Source of the DNA: a virus
Taxonomy: Duplodnaviria; Caudoviricetes
Direction: 5' to 3' (one strand)
DNA length: 64,000 nucleotides
Virus record (IMG/VR): IMGVR_UViG_3300032053_000004
Location: 1 to 64,000 of that record
The notes under the pieces were generated by a model. It had not been told where the DNA came from. It saw nothing but the letters and a program-made list of their open reading frames with translations, and did no database searches. Of this stretch, positions 2,321 through 51,606 are shown one piece after another (position 1 is the stretch's first letter; every line of letters starts with the position of its first letter). The translations under genes were made by a program, and so were the position numbers.

Positions 2321-2530
2321 TTAAGAAGAGAGTACTTCATTCGCACGATACTCTTCTGAAACTTTTTCAAGTTCATGCTCCCGAAATTCTATTGGATTAA
2401 TACGACCACCCCACCATATAAATACTGAATAACCATTTGGGGTTTTCACGTTTATACGACCATATTTATCATCCCAGTCCCTTAAGGCAGGCTTTTCGAA
2501 TCGAACAGGGTCACCATTATTAAATTTCAT
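2321..2530 (-). CDS. Small SH3/KOW-like hypothetical protein with C-terminal tag
   Basis: MKFNNGDPVRF...; ends YRANEVLSS. Confidence 0.7.
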   Translation of the reverse strand: MKFNNGDPVRFEKPALRDWDDKYGRINVKTPNGYSVFIWWGGRINPIEFREHELEKVSEEYRANEVLSS

Positions 2531-2565
2531 GCTTCTTTGAATCTGACGACAATCATATAAAAGTT

Positions 2566-3210
2566 CTAACTGTCAACGACTCTTTCGCAGAGATATTCGT
2601 TAACTGCTTCTTGGACAACATCCTCGGAGACCTCCTTATACTTCCTGAGAGACGCCTTGATCTCTTCCATGGCCTGGCGTGACAATGCCATCCGGCCTTT
2701 CTTTGCAAATTCCTCGGATTGTTCAAGACGTGCCATTTCGGCTTCGAGATCATTGGCTTTGTTGACGAAATTCTCATTCAGGCCATCTCCATACCACTGG
2801 TCAAAGAGATACTTCGCCAGATCCACCTTTTCACGCTTACAATTGTAAGTAGGGCAATCCTTCTGACCGAAGTGTGTTCGGACGATGCGCTCGCAGATGG
2901 GCGTGATGCTCTCTTTAAGCTCCGCCTTCAAGGGCTCCTTTACGGATCCATACGAAATGTTTCGTTCCACGAAAACAGGTATGTCCTCGACGATATCCGT
3001 CTCCATTCGCATCTTGAATAGATGAGTTGTGGTGGCATTCCAGGTATTCACATGGAATGTATATCCCACGATTTTGGCAGTTCTGACTCTATGGTTCAGG
3101 ATTTCCGGGATCTCCTTCGACTCCGGGACACTCCCGAGAATCGTGAGTACCTTGTAATATGAAGAATTCGGAAGGATGGGTTTGGGCTCAGAGTTTTTTC
3201 GACGGCTCAT
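2566..3210 (-). CDS. Hypothetical protein with C-terminal tag
   Basis: Start moved to ATG 3210 (GGAGG RBS, promoter); ends LCERVVDS. Confidence 0.75.
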   Translation of the reverse strand: MSRRKNSEPKPILPNSSYYKVLTILGSVPESKEIPEILNHRVRTAKIVGYTFHVNTWNATTTHLFKMRMETDIVEDIPVFVERNISYGSVKEPLKAELKESITPICERIVRTHFGQKDCPTYNCKREKVDLAKYLFDQWYGDGLNENFVNKANDLEAEMARLEQSEEFAKKGRMALSRQAMEEIKASLRKYKEVSEDVVQEAVNEYLCERVVDS

Positions 3211-3230
3211 ATGGAATACCTCCGGCACCC

Positions 3231-3262
3231 GATACGCGCCCAGCGCCCCGGCTTGCGCCTTT
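3231..3262 (-). promoter_or_regulatory. Repeated early-type promoter
   Basis: AAAGGCGCAAG...CGTATC-N7-GGAGG. Confidence 0.8.
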
Positions 3263-3995
3263 CCTGAGTTTCCTTTGGGGTTTCTTTTGTCTTTTGAAGC
3301 ATATGGGCTATTTCGATACCTTCGGAGCGGAAAGGCCAAGGAAAGTCAAAGGAATAACTTAAACTTTCGGAATTCCGATTTCCTGGTTTTCGTTGTACAG
3401 TTCCTTCGCAAGACGAAGAACTGCGGGGTTTAAAGACCCCGACTTGGTAAGGCAATTAGAATCTTCAATCATTCAATTTCTTACCTAGTTCCTGAGGACA
3501 GAGGATAACCAAGAAGATCGAGAAGACAGTTTGAAATTTAAAGAGTGATTGAACCTAACTCTTTAAATTTCACCCTAAAGATACCGGTGAAAAACCCGTT
3601 CTTTCTTAGGGAAAGAAAAAGAAATTTTTCTTTTATTTTCTTCCTTTCAAATTTTTCGTCTCGCTTTTCAAAGAAAAACGGAAACGAAGTCTGATCGTGA
3701 AACGATAAGAGATCCAGAAGTAGTAGTAGAAGTGAACCGGGATGAGAAGGATTTAGTAGAGAGTCGAGTTCTAACTCGTTGTGGAATATTGGATAGGAAT
3801 GAATCAAGCGTTTCTTTGGTCTTAGAGGATTTGAAATATTGGGAAATTGTTGAATCGCTGATTGAAACTTTAGATGTCTTAAAAGTTCGAGGAGTATCTA
3901 TGAATGATCCGACATATGCTCGGGCTTCAAATGTACTTCTGAAAGTATTAAACCGGATTTATTAATAGTTAAATTTTCTTTGAAAGAATGGGAGT

Positions 3996-4394
3996 ATGGC
4001 GAGCACTGCAACCGTTACCGTAAGTATTGTTTATACCCCTCCTTCAGCTCCAACCAACTCTGGAACCGTTAGTTTAACGGTCCCGGTGTCACTAGATGCA
4101 CAGAACGTGGGGCAGATTGATATACCCGCTTCTACGGCCCCAGCAACAGCCTTGGCCATTCCATTCGGTTCAGTAAATTCGGCCCGAATAATTTTAGTTA
4201 AAAATTTAACTTCTCAAGAATTGGTTTTGAAGCTAAATGGCGGCTTAGCCATTTCTAATATAACAGCAAACGGCGAGTTCCTTTACGTTTGTCCGACAGA
4301 TCCTCTCGCCTTACCGATGTCTTCAGCGTCCCTCACGACTACTGCGGCCTTCCTCGGCCCTGAGTCGTTGCAATACTGGATATTCGGGACCTGA
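3996..4394 (+). CDS. Beta-rich hypothetical protein, possibly structural
   Basis: GGGAG RBS; Thr/Ser/Ala/Val-rich 132 aa. Confidence 0.6.
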   Translation: MASTATVTVSIVYTPPSAPTNSGTVSLTVPVSLDAQNVGQIDIPASTAPATALAIPFGSVNSARIILVKNLTSQELVLKLNGGLAISNITANGEFLYVCPTDPLALPMSSASLTTTAAFLGPESLQYWIFGT

Positions 4395-4395
4395 T

Positions 4396-4653: not shown

Positions 4654-4950
4654 TTACGCTTTATAGCGTATATCTGATCTATATTTATTGGTATCTTCCG
4701 CCTCGATCATGGCGTACTCGAGGTGGTCGAGTATTTCGTAAATTGATTTCGACTGCTGAATTCCTGACTTGAGCCCTTGGGTTATTTTACCCTGTGTTTC
4801 AAGGTTTATATTTGGGCTACCTGTAATTTGTCCGACTTCTTTCGCCATGTCATCTAAAATAGAGTAACCTTCGATTTCGCCTTTGGCTTCGAAAAGCCTG
4901 CGTCTCGCGTTATTGAAGATGCACTGAATCAGAATCCGATTGACATTCAT
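4654..4950 (-). CDS. Hypothetical protein
   Basis: Translationally coupled to upstream ORF. Confidence 0.55.
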   Translation of the reverse strand: MNVNRILIQCIFNNARRRLFEAKGEIEGYSILDDMAKEVGQITGSPNINLETQGKITQGLKSGIQQSKSIYEILDHLEYAMIEAEDTNKYRSDIRYKA

Positions 4951-5366
4951 GCGTTTACAACTTCCTCAGCTTCACAGATTTCAATGTGATTTTTAATTTG
5001 AAGTTCACGAAATATGATTTGACTGGTCTTCGAAGCTTCAATCTGTTCAGCGAGTCTCTGGATCCAGAATTCCGGAACGTAGGAACTGTGAACGAGAGAT
5101 ATGAGATGATTGGCTGCGCTGAGTGGCGTCAAATCTTGATATTTTTTATATTTACCCATATAAACTTTATCCCACGCAAGACTTGCATGGGCGAGGTGGA
5201 TTGGAACTAATAAATCCGAACGATTAGCCCAATTTCGGCCTACTCTTAAGAGTAGGAGTCCTCGTTGCTTGTCGCGGAACTTTAAGAGTCCGATAATCGG
5301 TCCTTTGTCGATTTTACTCATGATCTGGTTAACCTTCGACAACTTCTCTAGCCATCTCTTGTTCAA
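4947..5366 (-). CDS. Hypothetical protein with C-terminal tag (paralog of 5329..5691)
   Basis: Shares KGPIIG..KFR and FRELQ.K..IE with next ORF; ends EAEEVVNA. Confidence 0.7.
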   Translation of the reverse strand: MNKRWLEKLSKVNQIMSKIDKGPIIGLLKFRDKQRGLLLLRVGRNWANRSDLLVPIHLAHASLAWDKVYMGKYKKYQDLTPLSAANHLISLVHSSYVPEFWIQRLAEQIEASKTSQIIFRELQIKNHIEICEAEEVVNA

Positions 5367-5691
5367 TGAAAGTTTTCAATTGAAGTTCACGAAATGTTAT
5401 CTGCTTAGTTTTTATCGAAACGATATATGCGGCAAATCGTTTGGTTATTTCTTTCCCAGAGTGTTCGTTTTGGACTCCTCCGACTTCATATAGAAGACGA
5501 TAAGCCGCATCGAATGGAGTCAGGTTTTCTCTTAAACTAAAACCTACTCGATAAGACGCGTTTCTTATTTTTAAATCAACACGCCACCCCCACCCCGTGG
5601 GATATAGATTTCGTTCCTTTATTCGGAATTTTACTATTCCGATAATCGGACCCTTAATTTTGTCAGGGTTACCCCAGAACGGATTATTCAT
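5329..5691 (-). CDS. Hypothetical protein with C-terminal tag (paralog of 4947..5366)
   Basis: KGPIIGIVKFR...FRELQLKTFIE; ends MAREVVEG. Confidence 0.7.
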   Translation of the reverse strand: MNNPFWGNPDKIKGPIIGIVKFRIKERNLYPTGWGWRVDLKIRNASYRVGFSLRENLTPFDAAYRLLYEVGGVQNEHSGKEITKRFAAYIVSIKTKQITFRELQLKTFIEQEMAREVVEG

Positions 5692-6817: not shown

Positions 6818-7081
6818 CTAGCTTTCTAGAAGTTCTTGGGTGTGGTCTTCGTCGTAATTGTCGTAGACGAGCTTATACTCGAAATTTGGAGGAAAGTCGA
6901 AGACGGGCTGGCCGTTATCAGCGTCCATCATTTCATATTCAGGCGAATCTCCATCCTTAATATGAATTGTCCCATATCTCCTAATTTCAACTGATAGATT
7001 GAGCTCGTGGAGAAGTGCAAACACCTTTTCGAGTTTCTGGCTCGTCGGATGTTTGTCCGTTAGACGCGTTCTTTTTGGCAT
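6818..7081 (-). CDS. Hypothetical protein with C-terminal tag
   Basis: ATG abuts tRNA-Arg 3' end; ends HTQELLES. Confidence 0.65.
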   Translation of the reverse strand: MPKRTRLTDKHPTSQKLEKVFALLHELNLSVEIRRYGTIHIKDGDSPEYEMMDADNGQPVFDFPPNFEYKLVYDNYDEDHTQELLES

Positions 7082-7083
7082 AG

Positions 7084-7158
7084 TACCCCTGGCAGGGCTC
7101 GAACCTGCGACCGTGGCCTTAGAAAGACCCTGCTCTGATCCAACTGAGCTACAGGGGC
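7084..7158 (-). tRNA. tRNA-Arg(TCT)
   Basis: Cloverleaf GCCCCTG...GGTTCGAGCC...CAGGGGT-A, loop TTTCTAA; followed by CTA, not CCA. Confidence 0.9.
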
Positions 7159-8150: not shown

Positions 8151-8393
8151 TCATGAATCAAGAAGAAGAGCAGTTTGATACTCATCTTCGGAAATTTCTT
8201 CAAGAGCTACAAACTTGTAACTAGCGAATATTCCTCTGTTAAATCGAACAGTGACGTCTTCGTGAGGGTTAATGGTACAGCAGATCCCTACAGAACCCGG
8301 AGGGAACGAGAATTTTTCGTTATTCTTTCCCGTGTCCAATCTCCAAGTCACCACTTGGTGCACGAGAGTACGGACTTTTGAACCGTTATCCAT
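8151..8393 (-). CDS. SH3-like hypothetical protein with C-terminal tag
   Basis: MDNGSKVRT...; ends EYQTALLLDS. Confidence 0.65.
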   Translation of the reverse strand: MDNGSKVRTLVHQVVTWRLDTGKNNEKFSFPPGSVGICCTINPHEDVTVRFNRGIFASYKFVALEEISEDEYQTALLLDS

Positions 8394-9443: not shown

Positions 9444-9983
9444 ATGAATTGTATTATCACCGTTAAGGGAAATGGTTCGGGGCGATACGGCAATCCTAAA
9501 ACGCCCCGTACTGGCCCTCTAAAAGAGTTCCTGGTCGATAACAGTGTTTTCTACATTGCTGTTACGAACCATCTCAAGACATGCAACACTTGTTCTATCG
9601 AGGAAATTCTTCGATATTATCTTGAGCGAAGGAAGACCAACTCTAAATTTAACGGGTTTACGGCAACCGGGATTGTAAACCGGGCTCTGATTTTGGAAAA
9701 ACTGGCTGCTAAGAAAGGCTGTCCAGTTCCAAAAGAGCTTGTGAATGAATTTCTTTGGAGATCTGGACCGTATTTTAACGTGAATTTCGGAGACCGCCTT
9801 TCTCCTCGAGAGAAGATTCTCGGTTTCAAGGTACTCTTCTCCGTTCCAGAATTCACTCAAGTGGGCTTGCTAACCAGTGTTGATATGACTCTGGCGAAGA
9901 TTGCCCAGGATTCGTCTGGGAAAGATTTCACTGACGAAGAGATAGAATCTCTTGTGAGGGTCGCTGAAGTGATTTACGCCTGA
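9444..9983 (+). CDS. Hypothetical protein with C-terminal tag
   Basis: Start at ATG 9444 by RBS; ends RVAEVIYA. Confidence 0.7.
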   Translation: MNCIITVKGNGSGRYGNPKTPRTGPLKEFLVDNSVFYIAVTNHLKTCNTCSIEEILRYYLERRKTNSKFNGFTATGIVNRALILEKLAAKKGCPVPKELVNEFLWRSGPYFNVNFGDRLSPREKILGFKVLFSVPEFTQVGLLTSVDMTLAKIAQDSSGKDFTDEEIESLVRVAEVIYA

Positions 9984-10529: not shown

Positions 10530-10937
10530 GTGGGATCAATGGGAAGTAATTGGGAAGACGTTTGGCCGACACAGCGGGCCAAGCGTCCGCCGGATGATGG
10601 AAAGGTCGATCCCTGGGCGCGGGAAGTGACCGAAACTATCCGTTCCGTCATCAACCGACCGAAGTCCGGTCTCCATGCTGAGGAACGCCATAAGGTCCCT
10701 AATGTCAAAGGGATTTGCACTCCTATCGAAGTTCTTGCAACTGGGGAGAAGTTCAATCTCTTCATTCATTGGTATCGAACTAATGTTAGTATCCGGGTCG
10801 GTCCCAGTAACTTTGAAGAACGGTTCAATTTCTCAGTTGTAATATCTAGAGATAAGCCAATCAAGATCCGTAAACTTGCGTTGGTGTTGTGTAAGAAGCT
10901 CGTGAACAAGGCCGTATACGACATATTAAAGTCTTGA
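10530..10937 (+). CDS. Hypothetical protein with C-terminal tag
   Basis: Ends AVYDILKS. Confidence 0.6.
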   Translation: MGSMGSNWEDVWPTQRAKRPPDDGKVDPWAREVTETIRSVINRPKSGLHAEERHKVPNVKGICTPIEVLATGEKFNLFIHWYRTNVSIRVGPSNFEERFNFSVVISRDKPIKIRKLALVLCKKLVNKAVYDILKS

Positions 10938-11616: not shown

Positions 11617-12216
11617 ATGCAAATTTGTAAAGACAAAGATGTTGAAGAAGCCGTCGCCAATAGGCTCGAAGAAGGATGCCGAGAGCATTTGAAGAAAATC
11701 GCTTATCGGTATATCAAGACTGGTCGTGAAGAGGTCTATGCTAGCGGTATGATGATGGCTGCTGAAATTGGACAGGCGAAAGACGGTCTCAATCTTTCAA
11801 TCGTTGTCGTTGTCGGAGGCATTTTTGTTTTTGACGGGAAGCAGGAAGAAATTCTGGACAAGATCTACGGAATTGTCCGGACGAACATCGATACGCCAGT
11901 AAAAGTCCTTGGCAAAATGGCTTATATCCGCATGAAGCGGTTTGAAGAGATGCTCAGAGGGAGAAACTATACGTTTATCCAACACGGACAGAGAAGAGCT
12001 CATAATTTCAACGAACATGAAGAACTCCCAGATCTTAGTAAGAAAGAGCTTTGGGGTCCGGCAATAGCCATACTCAAGCAGAGTCCTTGGGGCACGACTC
12101 AACACGTACATCATGAAGCGGACATCAAGAAATTCCTCGCTCGGGACGAAGTCACGGACGAAGTTCTTCAAGTCGGTTGGGATATGATGATGACGAAAGA
12201 ATTGATTACTGCATGA
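11617..12216 (+). CDS. Hypothetical protein with C-terminal tag
   Basis: AGGAGG RBS behind CGTACC promoter variant; ends MTKELITA. Confidence 0.72.
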   Translation: MQICKDKDVEEAVANRLEEGCREHLKKIAYRYIKTGREEVYASGMMMAAEIGQAKDGLNLSIVVVVGGIFVFDGKQEEILDKIYGIVRTNIDTPVKVLGKMAYIRMKRFEEMLRGRNYTFIQHGQRRAHNFNEHEELPDLSKKELWGPAIAILKQSPWGTTQHVHHEADIKKFLARDEVTDEVLQVGWDMMMTKELITA

Positions 12217-12431
12217 GGGGTTTTTGGGCTTGGTGGGAGTCCCAAGAGGAACGCCGGAAATCATTATATGGGGAGGGACCTGCGGGAGGCCATTGGGTTT
12301 GGTCCGGGTCTATAGAAGACCCAGGGAAGGAGCGTCAAATTTTCCTAGGGAAGGATTTTAAAGAAGCTCAAGAAAATATGTCGGCCTTACTTGAAAATGA
12401 TAGAATAACGAACGAGATTATAACTTCGTAG
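12213..12431 (+). CDS. Hypothetical protein with C-terminal tag
   Basis: ATGA overlap; ends ITNEIITS. Confidence 0.6.
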   Translation: MRGFWAWWESQEERRKSLYGEGPAGGHWVWSGSIEDPGKERQIFLGKDFKEAQENMSALLENDRITNEIITS

Positions 12432-12479: not shown

Positions 12480-12911
12480 GTGGAGATGGCACGTCCAGAT
12501 CTCATAAATAGATTCCGTAATCTCGTCCCATATGGCATACAATGGATCACGAGGGAGTATATCTGCGAAAAGACTGGAGCATCTTTGCCAGACGTCGATG
12601 ATTGTTTTCAGCATTTCATCCGGACGAAAACCCTCCGGGAGATGCAGCAGTCTATACCTCGAAGAGAAGAACGCTGGCATAAGCGAGAAATAGCTCTTGA
12701 TTCGGACCGGAGCCATGTTCGATTTTATATTGTGCTCCGTCCTTGTGATTGGATGTTCGACTGGTATGGCCAGTCTCTCGGGAAGAAAACCAAGCCTCAG
12801 CGCCTCTGCAAACTCTGCCAAAAGCCGATCTTGCGTCGTCACCAAAAAGCTGGTTTTCACGACAAGGATAAATGCGACGAGGATCAAACCGAGTGGGTGC
12901 TGAAGTCATGA
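12480..12911 (+). CDS. Hypothetical protein (CxxC...H...C) with C-terminal tag
   Basis: Ends QTEWVLKS. Confidence 0.65.
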   Translation: MEMARPDLINRFRNLVPYGIQWITREYICEKTGASLPDVDDCFQHFIRTKTLREMQQSIPRREERWHKREIALDSDRSHVRFYIVLRPCDWMFDWYGQSLGKKTKPQRLCKLCQKPILRRHQKAGFHDKDKCDEDQTEWVLKS

Positions 12912-13159
12912 CAGAGATGACCGACAAACAAATTCGTCGAGCCATCCTTCGGGTGAACACCGGGCTCACAGAACAAATGCTTCAGTTGAATGAATCCGAT
13001 TTTCGTCTTATGAAAACTCAAGCCGGTTGGCATGTTTCGATTTCCAAATACGAAAATTTTCAGCGGGAATATGTGGCTAATTGGAGTCAAATTCCGACTG
13101 TTGAAGCTGTTCGACAAGCGATCGACATAATTTTAGCTGAAGAAGTAATGGACAGCTGA
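12908..13159 (+). CDS. Hypothetical protein with C-terminal tag
   Basis: ATGA overlap; ends LAEEVMDS. Confidence 0.7.
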   Translation: MTEMTDKQIRRAILRVNTGLTEQMLQLNESDFRLMKTQAGWHVSISKYENFQREYVANWSQIPTVEAVRQAIDIILAEEVMDS

Positions 13160-16337: not shown

Positions 16338-16604
16338 TTAGGCATGTATTAATTGAGACGCGTGGAATTCGTCGATTTCTTCAGGCGAGGCCGCCCAAAG
16401 ACTTGAAAACGGACAATGAACCGTGTGCCCGTCGGCAAGACGGAGTACAGCCACATGAATGTTGATCCCATTCCGGTTGGGCTCCATTCCAGAGCGAATA
16501 TGTTCTCCAACCATTCCTTCGAACTTATATAAAGCTTCGGGCCAAGGTCGGCGGCTCGTTTCTTGGGAGCTGCCAAGGCAAATTCTATAATAACTAGTAC
16601 TCAT
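16338..16604 (-). CDS. Hypothetical protein with C-terminal tag
   Basis: Ends FHASQLIHA. Confidence 0.6.
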   Translation of the reverse strand: MSTSYYRICLGSSQETSRRPWPEALYKFEGMVGEHIRSGMEPNRNGINIHVAVLRLADGHTVHCPFSSLWAASPEEIDEFHASQLIHA

Positions 16605-17017
16605 GAAGTCATGACTTCAAGGGTAGCGATCTCGTCGTCTGTGTAAAAACCACAGGAAATCCCGGATCGCATAAGTTCCGATGCGCAACCCTCTATTGTT
16701 GGATTCGAGTTGTATGGGTTCAGACTGACCCGAAAGACCTTCGGAACACCAGAACAAGGCCCGAGCTCAATAAAGTCCTTGGCATCTTTCAACGTTATCC
16801 CGCTGTAATTCCGAAGAATCTTGATGGCTGCAATTTTTAGGCTAGATGGAACCCGAGTTATGACCAAATGACGCTCTTGTGCCAATTCTTTGATAATTGG
16901 GTGAGCGTTCTCCCAAACGATTTTTGCCACCTCAAGATATTTTTCTTTACTTAGAGAGGCGAACTCGCGCGAAACCTCAACGCGTGTTTCGTCTTCGATG
17001 ATGATTGTGATTTTCAT
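16601..17017 (-). CDS. Protein with ribosomal bL12 C-terminal-domain-like motif and C-terminal tag
   Basis: SLKIAAIKILRNYSGITLKDAKDFIE; start ATG 17017 (ATGA overlap); ends IATLEVMTS. Confidence 0.65.
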   Translation of the reverse strand: MKITIIIEDETRVEVSREFASLSKEKYLEVAKIVWENAHPIIKELAQERHLVITRVPSSLKIAAIKILRNYSGITLKDAKDFIELGPCSGVPKVFRVSLNPYNSNPTIEGCASELMRSGISCGFYTDDEIATLEVMTS

Positions 17018-17391
17018 GCTGATAGAACTTCGTACGTGTGTACTCGTTCCCGAAGATACTCGAGATCGGAGTAAGAATTGATCCAATCCCGGATCTTTTC
17101 AAAGATTTTAACATCTCCTTCAGAGTTTCTTCTCTGTTGAGTATTTAGATAACCAGCTACCTCTACAAGACGGAGAGATTCTCCGCTCAGAAGAGAGTCA
17201 AACGTGTGGCGGAATGAGTCTGCCACATGATGCGATGTTCCCACGAGGGCGCAAACTGCATCCTCATAGACTGTATCCAGATCGACGGGTTTGGCCGCAG
17301 AGAGCCAAACAACGGTATCCTGCCGTTTGACGAGGTATCGCTTACATACTTCGCAGATACAATATACATCCACAGTAGACTCTCTATACAC
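17014..17391 (-). CDS. Hypothetical protein with C-terminal tag
   Basis: Ends HTYEVLSA. Confidence 0.65.
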   Translation of the reverse strand: MYRESTVDVYCICEVCKRYLVKRQDTVVWLSAAKPVDLDTVYEDAVCALVGTSHHVADSFRHTFDSLLSGESLRLVEVAGYLNTQQRRNSEGDVKIFEKIRDWINSYSDLEYLRERVHTYEVLSA

Positions 17392-17931: not shown

Positions 17932-18279
17932 GGTGAGTGCGGCAATAAACGCCGACTAAACAGCAAATAGACGCCGATCGATAACCATAACGGGAAAGAA
18001 AAGGTGTGTCATGACCTGGGGTATAACCGAGCGGGAGTGAGTCCCGCTTCCCTGAACCGGCGTACGACTTCTTTGGTGAGGACCGAGTTCAGTTAAAACT
18101 GAATAAATGGGAGATACCCTCCGCCAGCTTAAATGCTCGGAGGGTATCTGCATATTTTGAATGATATTTATTGCAAAGTTATACAACCAAGCCACGGCCG
18201 CCGGAAGTCTGCTGAGTTGTCGCGTATCCGAGAGCACGCCGGGCAATTTCGCTCGGCCTTTCTCCCAGGAGTTTTTCTC

Positions 18280-18630
18280 ATGACGAACCTTTACCCCTTC
18301 CTCTCCAAGGCCCAGATCTCCACCCGCATCGAGGAGGATCCCGCCTTCGCGCTGGAGTGTCTCCAGATCATGTGCTCGCGACAGACTGCTTTCGAGCAGG
18401 AGTCCAAGACCACGGTCGTGAAGAACCGGAGGGGCTTCATGAGCAGCCATGCCGTGAACGGCACCCTCCTGGCCGTCAAGGCTCGGACGGAGGGTCTCGA
18501 CGAGGTGGAGACCGCGAAGGCACAGGAGATGGTGTCTCACTACACCAAGCAGCTTGCGAGCCATTTCCGCCAGGAGGCTCTGGAGCGGGATCCTTCTCTT
18601 GCCGCAACGGCCCGGGTCTTCGGGGTCTAG
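18280..18630 (+). CDS. Four-copy paralog family protein, copy 1
   Basis: MTNLYPFLSK...RQTAFEQE...KNRRGFMSSHAVNGT...HYTKQLASHFR; AGGAG RBS. Confidence 0.85.
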   Translation: MTNLYPFLSKAQISTRIEEDPAFALECLQIMCSRQTAFEQESKTTVVKNRRGFMSSHAVNGTLLAVKARTEGLDEVETAKAQEMVSHYTKQLASHFRQEALERDPSLAATARVFGV

Positions 18631-19580: not shown

Positions 19581-19727
19581 ATGACCGAAAACACCAAGAT
19601 TCCAACCGAAATCGTTCCCCTTCCTTCGTGGGAGGAGGCACTCATAGAACTCGATCGGAAGAATACCGAGCTCGCTCTCAAGAGGCTTGAGAATCCTCGT
19701 CCTTCTCGTCTTGGACGAAAGTTCTGA
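19581..19727 (+). CDS. Small hypothetical protein
   Basis: GGAGG RBS; stop overlaps next ATG. Confidence 0.55.
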   Translation: MTENTKIPTEIVPLPSWEEALIELDRKNTELALKRLENPRPSRLGRKF

Positions 19728-20068
19728 TGACCGACCTACAAATCGTCTCAGCCTACATTAGTGCGTTCTTTGAAGACTCGCACACGGTTGCTGTCCAGGA
19801 TGAGGACGGCATCCACGTGCTGGGCTACACCATTTGGAAAGACGGCGACGTGTATCGTCTCCAGAAGACGGTGTACAATGCGGGAAACCGCGAGGAGCCG
19901 CCGTCTGAGGACGTGCAGGATCTCGAGGATTCCTACGCTCGCCTGGACAGCATGGTGCAAGCCATCATCCAATATGAGATTCAGGATATCTTCGCAGACG
20001 TGAGCGAGGGCATCTACTACCAGCAAGAGCAGGAACTCAAAAACGTTCAGGAAGTTGTGGAGGGATGA
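19727..20068 (+). CDS. Hypothetical protein with C-terminal tag
   Basis: Ends NVQEVVEG. Confidence 0.7.
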   Translation: MTDLQIVSAYISAFFEDSHTVAVQDEDGIHVLGYTIWKDGDVYRLQKTVYNAGNREEPPSEDVQDLEDSYARLDSMVQAIIQYEIQDIFADVSEGIYYQQEQELKNVQEVVEG

Positions 20069-20307
20069 TCCCAATCGGTTCAAAAGTCCGGGTGAAGGAT
20101 AGCCATTTCCATTCTCAGTGGCTCTATGGTGTTGTCACAGCGCATCACGACTTCCGAATGAAGGATTTTCATTCGGTGAATCTTCCCAACTCCTGTACTT
20201 ACCTTCAAGGTAAAAGAATTGGGGGAGTCACTCGCATGGTTTCTGAATCAGATCTTGAGGTGATCTCAGAAGAAGAGTTCGCAGCTGCGATAGTGGTGGA
20301 AGGCTGA
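20065..20307 (+). CDS. SH3-like hypothetical protein with C-terminal tag
   Basis: MIPIGSKVRVKD...; ends EFAAAIVVEG. Confidence 0.7.
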   Translation: MIPIGSKVRVKDSHFHSQWLYGVVTAHHDFRMKDFHSVNLPNSCTYLQGKRIGGVTRMVSESDLEVISEEEFAAAIVVEG

Positions 20308-20847: not shown

Positions 20848-20918
20848 TGAGGCATCGTTCAACGGTAGGACAAGGGACTTTGAATCCCTGAATCTAGGTT
20901 CGATTCCTAGTGCCTCAA
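20848..20918 (+). tRNA. tRNA-Gln(TTG)
   Basis: TGAGGCA/TGCCTCA acceptor; AGGGA-CTTTGAA-TCCCT; GGTTCGATTCC. Confidence 0.92.
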
Positions 20919-20923
20919 CTCAT

Positions 20924-20998
20924 GACCCCATAGTTTAGCGGCTAAAACTCTGGACTTTCAATCCGGCAATTGGGGTTCGATTCCCCATGGGGTCACCA
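20924..20998 (+). tRNA. tRNA-Glu(TTC)
   Basis: GACCCCA/TGGGGTC acceptor; CTGGA-CTTTCAA-TCCGG; encoded CCA. Confidence 0.92.
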
Positions 20999-21004
20999 AG
21001 AATC

Positions 21005-21625
21005 ATGATTCATCTCGCTTGCGACGTACCAAAGGACCACTTCTTCCTGGCTTGTTCAGGTGGGGTGGATTCTATGGTAGCTCTCGACTTCCTCTTGCGA
21101 GGAAAGCGAAGGCCGCACCTGCTCTATATCGACCATGGAACAGAACATGGGCGAGAAGCGAAGGCGTTCGTCCAAAAGCGCGCGGTAGAACTGTCACTCG
21201 CTTACCAAATTTGGTATACAGGTCCCCGTCCCGCCCACCTTTCGGTAGAAGAACACTGGAGAAACGAGCGGTACGCTCTCTTTCACGCGATGAAAGCGCC
21301 AGTCATCACTGCGCACCATCTCGACGACGCGGTTGAGTGGTGGATCATGTCAGCCTTGCACGGAAACCCGAGGCTCACTCCCGTAACGAACAAGAACGTG
21401 GTCCGTCCCTTCCTGTTCACGCCGAAGCAGGAGCTTCGCGACTGGGCGGAACGTCATCAGGTTTCTTGGATTGAAGACCCAACGAATGCAACAGGAGAAC
21501 ACGCAAGAAACGTTGTGCGCCACGAAATCATGAAACATGCGCTCCACGTAAATCCGGGTCTTCATAAGACCGTAAGAAAATTGTATGGGCCTTTAGTTCA
21601 ATTGGTCAGAACCTCCGGCTCATAA
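21005..21625 (+). CDS. tilS: tRNA(Ile)-lysidine synthase, N-terminal catalytic domain only
   Basis: PP-loop SGGVDS, RNERY, TAHHLDD.VE, RPFL, WIEDPTN, RN.VRH; start moved to 21005 because 20987 lies inside tRNA-Glu. Confidence 0.9.
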   Translation: MIHLACDVPKDHFFLACSGGVDSMVALDFLLRGKRRPHLLYIDHGTEHGREAKAFVQKRAVELSLAYQIWYTGPRPAHLSVEEHWRNERYALFHAMKAPVITAHHLDDAVEWWIMSALHGNPRLTPVTNKNVVRPFLFTPKQELRDWAERHQVSWIEDPTNATGEHARNVVRHEIMKHALHVNPGLHKTVRKLYGPLVQLVRTSGS

Positions 21626-21660
21626 CCGGATAGTTGGCGGTTCAAGTCCGCCAGGGCCCA
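21587..21660 (+). tRNA. tRNA-Ile2(CAT), lysidine-type (Met alternative less likely)
   Basis: GGGCCTT/AGGGCCC acceptor, TCCGG-CTCATAA-CCGGA; overlaps the 3' end of tilS. Confidence 0.85.
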
Positions 21661-21668
21661 CTAAAAGA

Positions 21669-22208
21669 ATGACGAACGTAGCGCGAATAGAAGACTTCTT
21701 TCATCGAAACGTGATCGATGAATACAAGAGCTTGTCCAATGAAGAAATTGGTCAAGCAATTGCGGAGAAGTCTCTTCCGTTCGCCGTGCTCATGGAGCAT
21801 TGGGAGCAGGATTTCAACATTGGAACGCTTCTCCGCAACGCAAATGCTCTGGGCGCTCGTGAAGTCTTCTATGTCGGCACCAAGCAGTGGGACCGTCGAG
21901 GCGCAGTGGGCGTACAGAACTACACAAAGCTTCGCCATCTGACCTCAGTTCATGAACTTCAAGATCGCTACAATTTTGTAGCACTAGAACAAACGGAAGG
22001 GAGCGTGTCACTCACCAAGTTCGTCTGGCCTGAAAACCCACTGATTGTTATCGGTTCAGAAAGCCTTGGCATCAGTGCGGAAACTCTCGCACTCTGCCCG
22101 TACCGGGTAGTGATCGAGCAGCGCGGAAGCGTCCGTTCGATGAACGCCGCGTCTGCTTCAACCGTTGCGATGTACGACTTCATAACGAAACGAGAGAGTC
22201 TTCTATGA
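21669..22208 (+). CDS. SpoU/TrmH-family (SPOUT) RNA 2'-O-methyltransferase
   Basis: FNIGTLLRNANALG, IVIGSESLGIS, RSMNAASA. Confidence 0.88.
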   Translation: MTNVARIEDFFHRNVIDEYKSLSNEEIGQAIAEKSLPFAVLMEHWEQDFNIGTLLRNANALGAREVFYVGTKQWDRRGAVGVQNYTKLRHLTSVHELQDRYNFVALEQTEGSVSLTKFVWPENPLIVIGSESLGISAETLALCPYRVVIEQRGSVRSMNAASASTVAMYDFITKRESLL

Positions 22209-22447
22209 AGAAGTGTTGGTTTTGTAATAAGAAGGCAATACAAGTAATAAAGCTTTCTGTTTCAAAGCCTGCTATCGAAAAAACTCATGTTGACTTTTTC
22301 TCTCAGACCAAAGGAATTCTCACCGTTTGTGAAACGCATTTAGAGAATTTAGAAAGAATGTCTGAACTTTCGAAAGAAAAAGGGAAAGGAGAAGTTGTAA
22401 GGTTCACGCCTGATGAAGTAAAGACTCTTGAACTCTTAGAAGCTTGA
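22205..22447 (+). CDS. CxxC hypothetical protein with C-terminal tag
   Basis: Ends EVKTLELLEA. Confidence 0.7.
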   Translation: MKKCWFCNKKAIQVIKLSVSKPAIEKTHVDFFSQTKGILTVCETHLENLERMSELSKEKGKGEVVRFTPDEVKTLELLEA

Positions 22448-22463
22448 ACTTAAGATAGTGTCT

Positions 22464-22537
22464 GGGCCCGTAGCTCAGTTGGTAGTAGCTACTCCCTTTT
22501 AAGGAGATGGTCGTCAGTTCGATCCTGACCGGGCCCA
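22464..22537 (+). tRNA. tRNA-Lys(TTT)
   Basis: GGGCCCG/CGGGCCC acceptor; CTCC-CTTTTAA-GGAG. Confidence 0.9.
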
Positions 22538-22601
22538 CTGTTTAGAACAACAGAAGGAAGATTTTCTGAATAAACTTAGACAAGCTTCGTAAAGAGATCA
22601 C

Positions 22602-22686
22602 GCCCCGGTGGTGGAAATGGCGATACACTCTGGACTTAAAATCCAGCGCCCGCAAGGGATTGAGGGTTCGACTCCCTCCCGGGGTA
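22602..22686 (+). tRNA. tRNA-Leu(TAA)
   Basis: GCCCCGG/CCGGGGT acceptor; CTGGA-CTTAAAA-TCCAG; long variable arm. Confidence 0.92.
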
Positions 22687-22697
22687 CTAGTTAAACT

Positions 22698-22736: not shown

Positions 22737-22886
22737 ATGGACGATTTTATTGTTTCCTATTTGAGGTTGCTGAAGGGCACATTACGTGAGTTGGACATGA
22801 TGGATGACGACACGTACATGAAGAATCGAAACTTCTCGTACGGGATCGACGTACTCGTCCACAAACTCTTGACGGAGGGCACATGA
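22737..22886 (+). CDS. Small hypothetical protein
   Basis: Leaderless start; ATGA overlap with next gene. Confidence 0.6.
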   Translation: MDDFIVSYLRLLKGTLRELDMMDDDTYMKNRNFSYGIDVLVHKLLTEGT

Positions 22887-23131
22887 AACTCAAAAAGGGT
22901 GATCTCGTCCGGGTGACAGCTCTATGTCACAGCAGACACCGTGAGTTTTTAAACTGTATCGGCGTCGTCGAAGGCCTGGTGAACTATGGAGTCTATGAAG
23001 GTGAGGTGATTCTGGGTCCGGAGATTGACGTTCGTTGGAGACCCTCAAACTTGAGATATGCTTATAAAGCAAACGAACTCGTCAAACTCTCTGACGACGA
23101 AGTCGCCACTCTGGAAGTTGTAGAATGTTAG
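22883..23131 (+). CDS. SH3/KOW-like protein with C-terminal tag
   Basis: MKLKKGDLVRV...; ends EVATLEVVEC. Confidence 0.75.
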   Translation: MKLKKGDLVRVTALCHSRHREFLNCIGVVEGLVNYGVYEGEVILGPEIDVRWRPSNLRYAYKANELVKLSDDEVATLEVVEC

Positions 23132-23648: not shown

Positions 23649-24011
23649 ATGTCCTACGTAGGATACGATCAGATCATTTGTAAAGCTGGGCATCTTTATG
23701 TCGTAGACGTACAACACTCATTCAACTGTGAGTGTGGCGCGATGCCATACTGGGTAAATTCAGTGGACGACACGAATGGCGAATCGTACGGCAAAATTTT
23801 GGACTTCTCCTCTCTTTTGATCGAGGGAGAAAAGACCGAAACCTGCCCTTGTTGCCAAAACACGAAAGTGACGGCCCTCGCCCAGTATCGCGTTCCGAAT
23901 GAGGAAGAAATGAAGCGTCTCCGTTTCCGTCGCGAGACTCTCGATAACGGTGAACACCGCTGGGTGAACATCCAGGAGGACCGAGAGGTTTCGGATGTTG
24001 TTGAAGGATAA
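23649..24011 (+). CDS. Cys/His-containing hypothetical protein with C-terminal tag
   Basis: GGAG RBS; ends EVSDVVEG. Confidence 0.7.
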   Translation: MSYVGYDQIICKAGHLYVVDVQHSFNCECGAMPYWVNSVDDTNGESYGKILDFSSLLIEGEKTETCPCCQNTKVTALAQYRVPNEEEMKRLRFRRETLDNGEHRWVNIQEDREVSDVVEG

Positions 24012-24681: not shown

Positions 24682-24701
24682 GGGGCGTGGAGGTCTACAC
24701 C

Positions 24702-25190
24702 ATGGGTTTCGGCAATACGCTATCTGAAGGTTATTCGTCTCTTCTCCTCGATCGTCTCGTGAAGTGGTATGTTGAGACTGGGGATTTTTACGAGATCTCC
24801 AGCAAAATGCTTGAAGGCAAGACATCGGCGGATTTCACGCTAATGTCTGCCGCACCCACGTCTGTGGGAGAGTGGTTTCTCGATCTCAGTCCCCTTCAGG
24901 CGGGAAATAGGAAGTTTTCCGATACAACCCGGTACTGGATTGTCAACTCGGGAACTCCGCCGGAAAACGTTCAGGTGTGGTTTCTGACGGAGCTTTACAA
25001 GCTCTTCTGGAAGACCAATCTGGCGAGTCATCTTCTCGAGAAAGAGGAGGAAGAAAAAATCCTCAAGAAGAAACACCTGACTCTCATTGGCAAAGCCATC
25101 ATGTCAGGAGCCTGGTGGGAAACACATGGACTTGCCGTCAAACGCCAGATCATCAATCTGAGAGCAACCAAGAAGGTTTTGGAAGCCTAG
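24702..25190 (+). CDS. Hypothetical protein with C-terminal tag
   Basis: Ends ATKKVLEA. Confidence 0.7.
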   Translation: MGFGNTLSEGYSSLLLDRLVKWYVETGDFYEISSKMLEGKTSADFTLMSAAPTSVGEWFLDLSPLQAGNRKFSDTTRYWIVNSGTPPENVQVWFLTELYKLFWKTNLASHLLEKEEEEKILKKKHLTLIGKAIMSGAWWETHGLAVKRQIINLRATKKVLEA

Positions 25191-28377: not shown

Positions 28378-28641
28378 ATGGAGAAAACGAAGGTCGAGTG
28401 GAGCTTGGTGTCCGAAGACTACGAAGGCCGTTCCGACTACTCGGTGCTCCGGCTCTCTGAGGACCGTAAACGGGTCCTTGCCGAGTGTAACGGTGCGGGA
28501 GAGTGGTGGGACCTTGAAGGCGAGCCGGTTCTGAACGACTCGTTCGAGGAACCAGAGTACCCGGTTTGTCCCGACGACCACTTCTCTGTTGACGAAGTCT
28601 GTCGTTCCGCGTTTGGTGTTGGAGTGAAAAAGAAGGTCTGA
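28378..28641 (+). CDS. Acidic hypothetical protein
   Basis: Leaderless start. Confidence 0.7.
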   Translation: MEKTKVEWSLVSEDYEGRSDYSVLRLSEDRKRVLAECNGAGEWWDLEGEPVLNDSFEEPEYPVCPDDHFSVDEVCRSAFGVGVKKKV

Positions 28642-30736: not shown

Positions 30737-31114
30737 TCAGCCCGCCGAGAAGACGACCCGTGTGGACCACGCCCTCTCCGCGATCGCCTTCAGGTCCGGG
30801 TTGGCCTTGATGGCCTCGACCCGGAAGTGCGACGCCAGCTGCTTGCTGTAGTGCGACGTCATGTCCTGCAGGCGCGCGATCTCGTGAGGCTCGAGCTCCT
30901 CACCGGCTCGGAGCTTGTTCGTGGCGGTCGTGCCGAAGACCGCGTGGCTGCACGACCAGCCCCGGCGGTTCTTGTTCACGGTCGTCTTCGCCTCCTGCTC
31001 ATACTCGGTCTGGCGCGACGTCATGATCTGCGCGCACTCCATCGCGAAGGACACGTCGTTGACGATGCGGGTCTTGATGTCGGACTTGGAGAGGAAGGGG
31101 TAGAGGTTGGCCAT
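30737..31114 (-). CDS. Four-copy paralog family protein, copy 3
   Basis: MANLYPFLSK...; C-terminus carries a small insertion relative to copies 2 and 4. Confidence 0.85.
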   Translation of the reverse strand: MANLYPFLSKSDIKTRIVNDVSFAMECAQIMTSRQTEYEQEAKTTVNKNRRGWSCSHAVFGTTATNKLRAGEELEPHEIARLQDMTSHYSKQLASHFRVEAIKANPDLKAIAERAWSTRVVFSAG

Positions 31115-31573
31115 GTTGTAAGTGCTCCTTGTAACGCCCGGTACGAACCGGGGGGCTCGATCTCCGCGCTGCGTCGTCGGCCCATCCGCCGTCGCAGCGC
31201 TCGGTGTCGCGCCCAATCCCCGATACGCGGGCAGGGGGCCGATCTACGAAACGACGCGGCGCGTCACGAGCAGGCCGGAAGTCCGAGTGCCGACCGCGTA
31301 TCGGGCCCTGATGATCAAGCCACCTGATTGAAAGTGAGTATACCATAATCTGAAGAGATATATGGTATACTCAAGCCGCAGATCTGCCCACCCTCGCTGT
31401 ATCGGTGAGTGCGCTAATGAAGCAAACCACGCGGGTGATGCCCGCTCCCCTCATAACCCAAGTAACCCAAGCCACCCAGGCGGATGACGGCCCCTAAGGC
31501 CCGACGCAATAGGGATCGCTTGGGTTTCGGCATATATGCCTAATCTTTAAAAAATATACCCTATACCTGAACA

Positions 31574-49278: not shown

Positions 49279-50567
49279 ATCAAGACTTACATCCTATTGA
49301 AGTTAGCATACAAAATTACCAATCTATAGATAACCTTAATTTTGAAATATACGGATTCACGTGTATTACCGGAAAATCTAATATTGGTAAAAGTGCCATT
49401 GTTAGAGCTATTTCTTCAGCTTTAGTAAACAACCCTGTTGTCGGTGCAGTCAGAAAGGGTGCTTCTTTTTGTTCTGTTTTAGTTCGTTCTAATGATTGGG
49501 AACTTATTTGGGAGAAAAGTGAAAAAGGATCTGGAAAGTATCTCGTTAACGGAAAATCATATGATAAAGTTGGTCAAGGTCAGATAGAACCAGTTCAAAG
49601 TTTAGGGTTTAAATCTGTTAAAGTAGGGAGCAAAAACACTTATCCTTGGTTGGCTTCTCAATTTTCTCCTATATTCTTGTTGGATGAATCCGGCCCGGCC
49701 ATAACTGACTTCATTTCTGAAGTATCTCGTTTAAATGTTCTTCAAAATTCGATCTCAATCAGTTTAAAAGGGAAAAAGAGTGCACTCGATGAAGCTAGGA
49801 TTAAGACACTTGATGTTCAAATCGCAAAAGATAAAATATCATCTTTAAATAAACTCGATGATTTAATAAATTTAGGTTTGGACCTTGAGGCTCAAGCCAA
49901 TTCTATTAGAGAGTATGAGAGCAAAATCCTTTCAGGTCAATCGTTTATTGAAAAAATCAGTTCTCATTCTAACAAAGTTAACTCGTTATCCAGTATTGAC
50001 GGTGTTAATGTTCCTGACGATAAAATAACTCCTCTTTTTGATTATTATTTTAAAGTCCATTCCCTTTGGAAGTTGATAGATAGCGCAGCGAATAAAGTTA
50101 TTTCTATTAGGAACGGATCTAAATTAATTATTCCTGATTTGCTGGAAAAAGAGTATGACACTTTCAAGTCTGTTCAAAGATTTGAAGGATATACTGATTT
50201 AAAACAATCGGTTTCTGATTTAGACAAGTCTATGGTCATTCCTGATTTAAATTTAAATCAGGAATTTGATGAATTTAAATCTATGTCAAATCTAAATGAC
50301 AAAATCAGAGTTGTTGCTGAATCTATCATTTTCTTAAATAAGAAACTCGACGTACCTGAATCGGATGCTGATTTTGATAATTTTTCTAAGATGTCAGTCT
50401 TAAATGGAAAAATTAAAGATATCACCGATGAAATGGACGATTTGTGTTCCTCGTTTAACACTTTTGATTTTGAGTTGAAAAATTTGGAAGAAGAAATTTC
50501 TAAAATACCCTCCTGTCCATCTTGTGGTAGACCTGTATCAGATAGTCATTCAACCCACGCTTCGTAA
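49275..50567 (+). CDS. Rad50/SbcC (gp46-like) ATPase, N-terminal half ending at zinc hook
   Basis: NYQSI, Walker A GKSNIGKS, Q-loop SQFSPIFLL, coiled coil, terminal CPSCGRP; no signature or Walker B. Confidence 0.8.
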   Translation: MNQDLHPIEVSIQNYQSIDNLNFEIYGFTCITGKSNIGKSAIVRAISSALVNNPVVGAVRKGASFCSVLVRSNDWELIWEKSEKGSGKYLVNGKSYDKVGQGQIEPVQSLGFKSVKVGSKNTYPWLASQFSPIFLLDESGPAITDFISEVSRLNVLQNSISISLKGKKSALDEARIKTLDVQIAKDKISSLNKLDDLINLGLDLEAQANSIREYESKILSGQSFIEKISSHSNKVNSLSSIDGVNVPDDKITPLFDYYFKVHSLWKLIDSAANKVISIRNGSKLIIPDLLEKEYDTFKSVQRFEGYTDLKQSVSDLDKSMVIPDLNLNQEFDEFKSMSNLNDKIRVVAESIIFLNKKLDVPESDADFDNFSKMSVLNGKIKDITDEMDDLCSSFNTFDFELKNLEEEISKIPSCPSCGRPVSDSHSTHAS

Positions 50568-50596
50568 ATTTAAATATTTTCTAAATATCATGTTTA

Positions 50597-51004
50597 ATGG
50601 GTTTCTTAATTAAAGAAAATTTATTATCAATATTTATTGATAATAAGATGGAAGGTGTTTTAAAGGTCAATTTGACTTTTAAAAATAACTCTCGTGTTTG
50701 TATTGCCGTTTATGACGGAATATCCATAGAACAAGCTGTTAATGTTACCGGTGATGTATCTTATAACCGGATGGAATTCATCAACAGTATTGCTAATGAA
50801 GTTAGCGACATCTGTGTAACCATTCTTGGGAGTGCAAATATAGCACTTCTTTCTGACCATGCAGAAAAAGAGTTTTTGTCTAAATGGGAGAAAGTCATAT
50901 TCTTTAATATAGTAAAAAGTTATTCTTTACATGAAAAAGTTTCTTATGAAGATGCAATTCAGGTTGTTAACGAGCTATACTCTATTCCAGTAATAGATGG
51001 ATAA
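50597..51004 (+). CDS. Hypothetical protein with C-terminal tag
   Basis: Ends LYSIPVIDG. Confidence 0.65.
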   Translation: MGFLIKENLLSIFIDNKMEGVLKVNLTFKNNSRVCIAVYDGISIEQAVNVTGDVSYNRMEFINSIANEVSDICVTILGSANIALLSDHAEKEFLSKWEKVIFFNIVKSYSLHEKVSYEDAIQVVNELYSIPVIDG

Positions 51005-51218
51005 TGTAAAGTGTTTTATGTTAACAAAACCTGTTATTGAATATACTGAAACTGAGTTATTTTCTATTTTAAATTCTGTTTCTAATGAAATTAAACGAAG
51101 AAATATTTTACTTGGATCTCCTAAAACTGCAAATAGTCCTAGTATTAATCTTCAAGAGAGTTTAAAAGTTCTCGTTGAAGTATTAGGTCCAGCTCTTCAA
51201 AATCTACAAAAGAAATGA
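50997..51218 (+). CDS. Small hypothetical protein
   Basis: Overlapping operon gene. Confidence 0.55.
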   Translation: MDNVKCFMLTKPVIEYTETELFSILNSVSNEIKRRNILLGSPKTANSPSINLQESLKVLVEVLGPALQNLQKK

Positions 51219-51225
51219 GGCATAC

Positions 51226-51606
51226 TTGTCCGATCTTTCTCAGAATGGCAGTTGTGTTAAGATCATAGGTCCGGGGCCTGATCCTCAAGAGTTTACTCTA
51301 ACTTTCGATGGAGAGTTTTTATTTAAATATGGGCCGGAACGAGATATTGAAATAATTAATATTTTCTGGCATATTCTTGCGATCCAACCAGATGTTTTTT
51401 ATGTGAAAGATAATCCTTTAATCACTATCAGTTCCGGTAATCATTCTGATGGAACCGGAGGATCTTCTGTAGAAATTACAGATGGAAAATTTAAAACTAT
51501 AGGCTGTGTTGATACTGAACGCAGCAATGCGTTTTGGTCTGCTATAGCAGACAATTATTCTCAGTTTATTGATACTTTATTGACTAAAGACGTGGTTGAT
51601 GCTTAG
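51226..51606 (+). CDS. Hypothetical protein with C-terminal tag
   Basis: GAGG RBS; ends LTKDVVDA. Confidence 0.65.
   Translation: MSDLSQNGSCVKIIGPGPDPQEFTLTFDGEFLFKYGPERDIEIINIFWHILAIQPDVFYVKDNPLITISSGNHSDGTGGSSVEITDGKFKTIGCVDTERSNAFWSAIADNYSQFIDTLLTKDVVDA

Follow-up and report, generated by a model that had tools for sequence, protein, structure and literature searches.

We analysed a 64-kb window at the start of one viral contig of 202 kb (G000) from an uncultured sediment jumbo phage, in which many small and mostly unrelated proteins end in the same short peptide tail, [DEN]-E-x-x-[TA]-x-E-[VLI]-[VLI(M)]-[ED]-[SAGC]-stop. The tail recurs across related phages in variants that are uniform within a genome. 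Among the tagged genes of these relatives lies that of a small stand-alone BRCT protein, whose N-terminus contains an internal copy of the motif in the variant of its own genome. Because concerted genome-wide variants shared with the BRCT helix are what one co-evolving receptor would give, we consider the tail to be, probably, a docking helix read by such a receptor.

The contig is 47% complete according to CheckV, and near-identical sequence occurs in more than 20 sediment metagenome runs; no RNA data sets are listed that hold this stretch. Related genomes were obtained by a RecA search of IMG/VR, which yielded five contigs (G001–G005) of 63–377 kb and 35–63% GC, two of them complete with terminal repeats, and these were analysed whole. 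A RecA tblastn search reached no more than 30–36% identity, a DNA search of the phage collection gave tRNA matches and no relative, and an alignment-based search for the locus in IMG/VR recovered G003 alone. Further metagenome contigs, L066 and L068, were used with the gene calls of their sources, and our own gene calls are crude.

The 32 C-terminal hexapeptides listed in the original prediction all directly precede a stop codon at their open reading frames (ORFs), and the common ending that it described proved to be real and longer than claimed: the shared tail covers 11–12 residues and, when read over 16, often has an S or T just before it. With each tail scored leave-one-out (LOO) and compared with internal windows, 29 of the 32 reach p<0.001, the weak ones being 10530–10937 (p=0.012), 42353–42643 (p=0.003) and 50597–51004 (p=0.022). 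Of the 240 genes called on the 202-kb contig, 33 end in the loose pattern [VIL][VILM]x[SAGC]-stop, versus 2.75 expected from its internal frequency; the tagged genes all lie at 2–52 kb except two at 109.4–110.5 kb, outside the window. Across the six genomes G000–G005, windows scoring at least 9 account for 273 of 1,631 C-termini as against 68 of 375,851 internal windows, making the motif about 900 times more frequent exactly at the C-terminus than inside proteins. A prior-free scan of the last 12 positions in G000–G003 finds enrichment at -11, -10, -7, -5, -4, -3, -2 and -1, with the same residue profile in all large relatives. Since the register to the chain end is exact (only about three matches fall 1–5 residues short of it, versus hundreds at the end), the end itself appears to be part of what is recognised. 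The internal matches are also unevenly placed, 15 of the 68 lying within the first 20 residues against 8.8% expected (2.5-fold, p=0.0007), and in a minority of proteins the tag may sit at the N-terminus. Our search of the literature found no description of this tail motif.

The claim that the constraint acts on protein likewise stands: because columns reach up to 2.0 bits in the first and second codon positions and only 0.1–0.5 bits in the third, it is the peptide that is constrained, and Leu, Ile and Val codons interchange within the tails. The same codon-position information rules out a Shine-Dalgarno site or other DNA or RNA signal. In an AlphaFold2 (AF2) model of the family of the tagged protein at 9444 (25 sequences, mean pLDDT 89), a single alpha helix takes in the last 15 residues and continues to the end of the chain; with a turn of 100 degrees per residue, the best conserved positions (-11, -10, -7, -4 and -3) would cluster within 60 degrees on one face of such a helix. 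A fold search with this model gave no match in the PDB at E <= 0.001 and none better than E 0.29 among the AFDB clusters. The tagged ORFs of the window are as follows.

2321..2530 (-), tagged, 69 residues, tail ..ANEVLSS, LOO score 14.4
2566..3339 (-), tagged, start uncertain (ortholog of 208 residues), ..CERVVDS, LOO 14.9; the G001 and G002 orthologs keep the tail
4947..5366 (-), tagged, paralog of 5329..5691 (BLASTP pair), ..AEEVVNA, LOO 11.5
5329..5691 (-), tagged, ..AREVVEG, LOO 9.2
6818..7081 (-), tagged, 87 residues, ..TQELLES, LOO 17.3; G001 ortholog ..TQEVLES
8151..8393 (-), tagged, 80 residues, ..TALLLDS, LOO 15.9
9444..9983 (+), tagged, 179 residues, conserved family, ..VAEVIYA, tail in helix 164–178 (AF2)
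10530..10937 (+), weak member, ..VYDILKS, LOO -1.8
11617..12216 (+), tagged, 199 residues, ..TKELITA, LOO 7.6; G002 homolog ..VKVVMTA
12177..12431 (+), tagged, likely start 12213, ..TNEIITS, LOO 11.1
12480..12911 (+), tagged, 143 residues, ..TEWVLKS, LOO 8.1
12872..13159 (+), tagged, ..AEEVMDS, LOO 17.2
16338..16604 (-), tagged, 88 residues, ..ASQLIHA, LOO 10.0
16601..17086 (-), tagged, ribosomal L7/L12 C-terminal domain (Pfam PF00542, 27.4 bits, cut-off 25.9), ..TLEVMTS, LOO 19.4
17014..17391 (-), tagged, ..TYEVLSA, LOO 13.1
19727..20068 (+), tagged, 113 residues, ..VQEVVEG, LOO 11.9; G001 homolog ..TQELVES
20065..20307 (+), tagged, 80 residues, ..AAIVVEG, LOO 14.3
22205..22447 (+), tagged, 80 residues, Cys-rich, ..TLELLEA, LOO 18.0
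22883..23131 (+), tagged, 82 residues, best match, ..TLEVVEC, LOO 23.8
23649..24011 (+), tagged, 120 residues, Cys-rich, ..VSDVVEG, LOO 11.1
24687..25190 (+), tagged, 167 residues, ..TKKVLEA, LOO 15.9
36906..37124 (+), tagged, 72 residues, in the AT-rich half, ..TQEVLES, LOO 23.2
37121..37384 (+), tagged, 87 residues, ..AFEILEA, LOO 14.0
40048..40539 (+), tagged, 163 residues, ..TLDVLDC, LOO 19.5
40578..41219 (+), tagged, 213 residues, ..TTSIVEG, LOO 6.5
41722..42333 (+), tagged, 203 residues, ..TEQIILS, LOO 10.6
42353..42643 (+), weak member, ..TMCLIEG, LOO 1.9
42647..42877 (+), tagged, 76 residues, CxxC, ..ILSVVGG, LOO 9.3; G005 homolog ..VEVMES, G002 homolog ..GVMES
42916..43302 (+), tagged, 128 residues, ..TAQVVDS, LOO 15.4
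43303..43614 (-), tagged, 103 residues, ..IAEVVDG, LOO 11.6
50597..51004 (+), weak member, ..SIPVIDG, LOO -3.9
51226..51606 (+), tagged, 126 residues, ..TKDVVDA, LOO 12.8

Using clade-specific matrices with a threshold of one expected false match per group, we counted tagged genes in all six genomes: 30 of 237 called genes in G000, 62 of 261 in G001, 99 of 491 in G002, 71 of 425 in G003, 12 of 127 in G004 and 6 of 90 in G005. The tail is present on 17–24% of the genes of relatives from IMG/VR and metagenomes and clusters in accessory regions, where 20-kb stretches reach 32 tagged of 49 genes in L066 and 19 of 35 in L068. The bodies that bear it are unrelated, as had been proposed: with the tail removed, a single BLASTP pair (4947/5329) emerges among 34 bodies, and the 280 tagged proteins of the six genomes resolve into 191 singletons and about 45 small families. 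Across the relatives the tail spans more than 200 families unrelated by BLAST. Searches with Pfam and PHROGs of the 32 bodies and of ten large tagged proteins of relatives recognised almost nothing, the L7/L12 C-terminal domain in 16601–17086 being the only clear domain match among the bodies of the window; Pfam likewise matched little in 20 conserved neighbours without the tail. For most of the tagged proteins of G000, even G001 offers no homolog. Where orthologs in related phages do exist, the tail is kept at 25–50% identity, and within families nearly all members are tagged, even at 25–35% identity; the 9444 family comprises 27 clusters in public metagenomes and has the terminal helix in all of them.

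The tail has also been gained by proteins whose closest kin lack it. The RecD2 helicase of G001, identified by Pfam, has a good tail on an extension of about 11 residues that is absent from the orthologs in G000, G002 and G003, and a 433-residue protein of G003 is the sole tagged member of a seven-member family. The statement that recognisable enzymes lack the tail accordingly holds within the window and fails for the RecD2 of the nearest relative. The gene for this tagged RecD2 (G001 73083–75335; L009:13086-15335:-) directly adjoins that of a Zn-finger/HhH/BRCT protein (G001 75345–76136; G000 ortholog at 72052–72849), the BRCT domain of which is homologous to the small BRCT protein.

Three tail variants can be distinguished, T..V-[VLI], V..V-[MHQ] and V..V-L, each uniform within a genome. 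G000 and G001 have T at -7 and V, L or I at -3, with an aliphatic residue at -3 in 28 of 30 and 57 of 62 tails, respectively; G002 and G003 have V or I at -7 and M, H or Q at -3, the latter in 95 of 99 and 70 of 71 tails, and the same residues occupy -3 in 31 of 32 tails of L066 and 18 of 19 of L068. Base composition does not explain the variants, for L070 (50% GC) is of the L type and G002 (51% GC) of the M type. In the relatives the gene order MoxR, DUF2201, a few tagged genes and BRCT is conserved, so that a stand-alone BRCT protein of 105–125 residues lies a few genes beyond MoxR and DUF2201, among tagged genes. The N-terminus of this protein is an internal copy of the tail motif, and in nine of nine genomes examined the copy follows the tail variant of its own genome:

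G001 and L072, BRCT helix T-L-[QE]-V-L-E, tails with T at -7 and an aliphatic residue at -3
G002, G003, L066, L068 and L075, BRCT helix [VM]-x-x-V-M-E (M-M-E in L075), tails with V or I at -7 and M, H or Q at -3
L070 and L071, BRCT helix [VI]-x-x-V-L-E, neighbouring tails with V or I at -7 in 8 of 9 and L or I at -3 in 9 of 9

The BRCT family forms 236 clusters in the protein collection, with PF00533 recorded for nearly all of the 120 cluster representatives listed; its helix is almost invariant and its T-G-H-L motif, which corresponds to the T/S-G motif of the BRCT fold, is conserved. A maximum-likelihood tree computed from the BRCT core only scatters the L state and places G001, L070 and L071 at different points; six changes of the -3 state are needed, at least two of them forced by well-supported branches. 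The AF2 model (100 sequences) forms the N-terminal motif as a helix at residues 8–17 (pLDDT 78–87). BRCT folds were matched at Z 9–10.7, and residues 1–108 of the model superpose on the RFC p140 BRCT region 375–480 (2k7f) at Z 10.7 over 95 residues, the helix included (VIA-align); the extra N-terminal helix is thus predicted to pack on the BRCT core. In the RFC1 class of BRCT domains the extra N-terminal helix belongs to a DNA 5'-phosphate-binding module, and by analogy the phage protein may bind 5'-phosphorylated DNA ends. An extra N-terminal helix is also present in the H-BRCT of Dbf4. The phage helix differs from both in having the sequence of a proteome-wide tail and in covarying with that tail, and we know of no relation between helix and tail for RFC1 or Dbf4. 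No small phage BRCT protein of this kind was found described in the literature. The model additionally matches chain B of the heterodimeric DNA ligase of phage PR1 (9hu3_B, Z 9.3).

These variants, switching genome by genome together with the BRCT N-terminal helix, strongly imply a common external reader, as the original prediction had supposed. We propose that the tail would act as a C-terminal amphipathic docking helix, an address tag on about a fifth of the proteins of the clade, the tagged set consisting mainly of small, presumably fast-turning-over accessory proteins. A single receptor co-evolving with the tail would bind it, and docking might serve recruitment, sorting or timed turnover. 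The small BRCT protein, which is of the RFC1/LigA type, would belong to the system as receptor or core co-client, because its N-terminal helix copies the tail and follows the variant of the genome. We regard it as possible, though short of likely, that the receptor is the BRCT domain, its N-terminal helix serving as a plug in cis until tails displace it; the predicted docked helix favours this, and the covariation would follow from it directly. The neighbouring MoxR/VWA-metallopeptidase machine and a conserved host hub are each less probable candidates for the receptor, and another phage protein takes up what likelihood is left. In its most explicit and still rather doubtful form, the BRCT idea amounts to a helix-exchange hub: the groove of the 110-residue BRCT protein would be plugged in cis, and the tags of up to about 100 proteins per genome would displace the plug, so that a fifth of the proteome would be tethered, each protein in its turn, to replication sites, nicks or 5'-phosphate ends of DNA, with groove, plug and tags co-evolving as a lineage-specific code.

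Several points weigh against the docking-helix proposal or against the place of the BRCT protein in it. All candidate receptors are putative. The tag sets of G002–G005 were defined by a position-specific scoring matrix (PSSM) trained on themselves, which makes the counts at -3 partly circular, though the prior-free scan points the same way; the tails of L070–L075 were chosen by eye and number only 2–5 per contig. The independent switches of variant are few, at least two and probably three with known tails. A comparison of BRCT core columns with the helix variant gave column 40 as the best (p=0.003 uncorrected), which is not significant in an underpowered comparison, and the absence of clear covariation in the core fits a third-party receptor as well as the BRCT domain. 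The enrichment of motif copies near N-termini suits a BRCT protein that is just another client, and given this enrichment it would be merely the most conserved client of some other receptor. Moreover, the fragment of G000 at hand lacks the BRCT gene, which would lie just beyond the contig start, and that the tagged genes are early genes is assumed.

A reading that we regard as unlikely, while granting it some weight, is that the tail docks on a host hub such as the sliding clamp, the N-domain of ClpX or ClpA, RNA polymerase or DnaK, so that the variants would track host lineages. Terminal docking peptides, both C- and N-terminal, are established on clamps and unfoldases, and a ligase/RFC1-type BRCT and a RecD2 helicase are plausible clamp clients. 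A search for ClpP (PF00574) gave no match in G000–G003 and one for the beta clamp (PF00712, PF02767) none in the four genomes, where divergent forms could escape detection; with neither ClpP nor a beta clamp recognised among the phage proteins, the host would have to supply such partners, and because GC content spans 35–63% the clade probably has several hosts. However, the tail fits no known consensus (QL[SD]LF, LAA-type, or an acidic run ending in F), and a hundred clients per genome is far above the known client sets of clamps or ClpX.

Also rather unlikely is a turnover or remodelling tag, by which the tail would deliver accessory proteins to the MoxR and DUF2201 VWA-HExxH pair at the start of the window, to be remodelled or cleaved, for example in the clearance of early proteins, with the BRCT protein as a client. 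With equal reserve, we envisage the MIDAS of the VWA domain as the site that binds either the acidic residue in position -2 or the carboxylate of the terminus. The two candidate partners are:

1093..2217 (-), MoxR-type AAA+ ATPase, untagged (Pfam AAA_5/AAA; orthologs 50–66% identical and syntenic)
1..875 (-), DUF2201 HExxH metallopeptidase-VWA protein, first 291 residues (Pfam on the intact G001 ortholog)

The DUF2201 protein has an HEGYH metallopeptidase motif and a Gly/Asp/Cys-rich linker and is truncated ahead of its VWA domain by the start of the contig; the orthologs in G001, G002 and G003 have an intact MIDAS (DxSxS..T..D) of the form DTSGS. The pair of MoxR and DUF2201_N+DUF2201 is kept, amid tagged genes, in G000–G003, L068, L070 and the 60-kb P0143 contig, and in an AAA_2 search MoxR was the sole chaperone-type AAA+ protein matched. 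Copies of the motif near N-termini would also suit a machine that needs a chain end. The tail end [VLIM]-[ED]-[small] is similar to the LDV/IDS-type ligands that integrin I domains bind, and factor B has its MIDAS ligated by a C-terminal carboxylate. Against these points, co-location says little where 30–65% of the neighbouring genes are tagged, DUF2201-MoxR pairs occur in many phages without such tails, and no feature of MoxR or DUF2201 was found to follow the tail variant. A complex prediction that paired a 67-residue tagged protein with the DUF2201 VWA-peptidase of G001, Mg and Zn included, is neutral on the question, at a score of 0.00 and with an uncertain fold for the partner. The earlier nomination of the MoxR-VWA pair as reader stays alive, in that the partner is conserved and syntenic with an intact MIDAS, but nothing links the pair to the tail.

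It is far less probable that there is no reader and that the helix is nothing more than the structural element best conserved in a single huge, fast-diverging superfamily of paralogs. Small tandem arrays of paralogs do exist (L066 17991–19742, L068 19511–20248), and the tail is inherited within families; yet it is also found on RecD2, an L7/L12 domain, Cys-rich mini-proteins and proteins of 200–430 residues with untagged homologs, its register to the chain end is exact, and concerted genome-wide switches shared with the BRCT N-terminus are unexpected for an internal packing helix. A paralog superfamily with a conserved terminal helix was rejected on the grounds that the bodies, apart from the one BLASTP pair among 34 and the small families, have no detectable homology and include RecD2 and the L12 C-terminal domain. 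The arrays hold four to six tiny tagged paralogs of 50–85 residues, some with a Cys at -12, as if the tail came directly after a zinc ribbon. A nucleic-acid or translation-termination signal (an embedded ribosome-binding site, a terminator or nascent-chain arrest) can practically be dismissed, for although the motif always abuts the stop codon and, in ten tails, an NNA-TGA end overlaps an ATG, third codon positions vary almost freely with interchanging Leu, Ile and Val codons, stop-codon usage is alike in tagged and untagged small genes (p=0.08–0.47), and the same motif occurs internally at the BRCT N-terminus.

Comparison with known systems places the docking-helix proposal within a familiar principle. 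Three types of terminal peptide were tried as identities for the tail and rejected. It has neither the LAA-like nor the basic MuA-like end of an ssrA/ClpX-type degron, ending instead in [VLIM]-[ED]-[SAGC]; its consensus is without the Q-L..L-F of the bacterial sliding-clamp motif (QL[SD]LF or QLxLxL); and unlike a T7/SSB-type acidic tail it has S, G, A or C as last residue and is modelled as a helix. Among phages, the gp45 clamp-binding C-termini of T4 (gp43, gp33, gp55) and the acidic tails of T7 (gp2.5, gp4) likewise join unrelated proteins through a short C-terminal peptide to one phage hub. Those concern two to four replication and transcription proteins with a known receptor, whereas here 30–100 mostly orphan proteins per genome bear a motif helix ending in [ED]-[small] whose receptor is putative; in scale the present system exceeds the known phage examples more than tenfold. 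PTS1/Pex5, encapsulin and microcompartment targeting peptides share with it a short terminal tag on many unrelated cargoes of one receptor, by analogy only. The encapsulation peptides of microcompartments are terminal amphipathic helices, like the tail, though of unrelated motif, and we know of no compartment or shell for these phages. SspB-type adaptors, with their C-terminal ClpX-binding XB peptide, and poxvirus ANK/PRANC proteins combine variable bodies with a constant C-terminal docking element, as here. The SspB comparison differs in that the phage genomes G000–G003 have no Clp protease match, and PRANC is a folded F-box-like domain whereas the phage tail is a 12-residue helix on bodies whose adaptor role is putative. 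The EEVD-COOH of Hsp70 and Hsp90, bound by TPR carboxylate clamps, and the LDV/IDS ligands of VWA/integrin I domains are acidic-hydrophobic C-terminal peptides resembling E-E-V-V-D-S and E-V-L-E-S; relative to EEVD and LDV the phage register is shifted by one extra small residue and the helix is longer, and VWA binding by the tail is putative. A conserved TPR protein was not found. Docking through a shared terminal peptide is a known principle, yet the present tail matches the consensus of none of the T4, T7, XB, PTS1, encapsulin or microcompartment peptides; specific to it is a conserved protein, the BRCT protein, bearing a copy of the tag that covaries with it.

The genes of jumbo phages are mostly small orphans that offer no handle, and a tag on 17–24% of the proteome sorts such orphans into one functional class. 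The tail also provides a direct biochemical bait for the common partner and a sequence rule by which real genes can be recognised among short ORFs. If the partner were the BRCT protein or the MoxR/VWA-peptidase pair, this would be a first function for modules that occur widely in large phages. The variants differ by lineage and resemble a specificity code through which exchanged genes stay compatible with the receptor already resident; such a code would bear on the movement of accessory genes between phages, and the pair of tag and receptor could serve as an orthogonal docking system.

Some further features of the window and its surroundings deserve mention. Three paralogs at 18133–18630 (+), 27810–28379 (-) and 30737–31216 (-) end in ..VFGV or ..VFSAG; they are kept in G001–G003 (30–52% identity) and have no Pfam match. 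A protein of 294 residues encoded at G000 105824–106708 (L076:825-1706:+), also without a Pfam match, shares 94% identity with the G001 ortholog and 90% with the G002 and G003 orthologs, where core genes are typically at 40–65%, and its residues 12–40 resemble residues 11–39 of the tagged 76-residue protein at 42647–42877. The GC content of the window falls from 50–58% (1–35500) to 33–40% (35500–64000). In four other sediment runs the GC-rich part is about twice as deep as the AT-rich one, and none of the contig pieces listed from these runs spans 34.1–35.5 kb; the shift is either an island common to several strains or an assembly join. Similar GC-rich islands occur in tagged regions of G001, and G000 has another at 120–135 kb. 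At the transition lies a gene for a VanW-like protein (35960–36850, -; Pfam, E 2e-37), with a homolog only in the G005 fragment. Finally, the window has six tRNA genes (Gln, Glu, Met, Lys, Leu and Arg) at 20848–22687 and 7083–7158, five of which are interleaved with small tagged genes.

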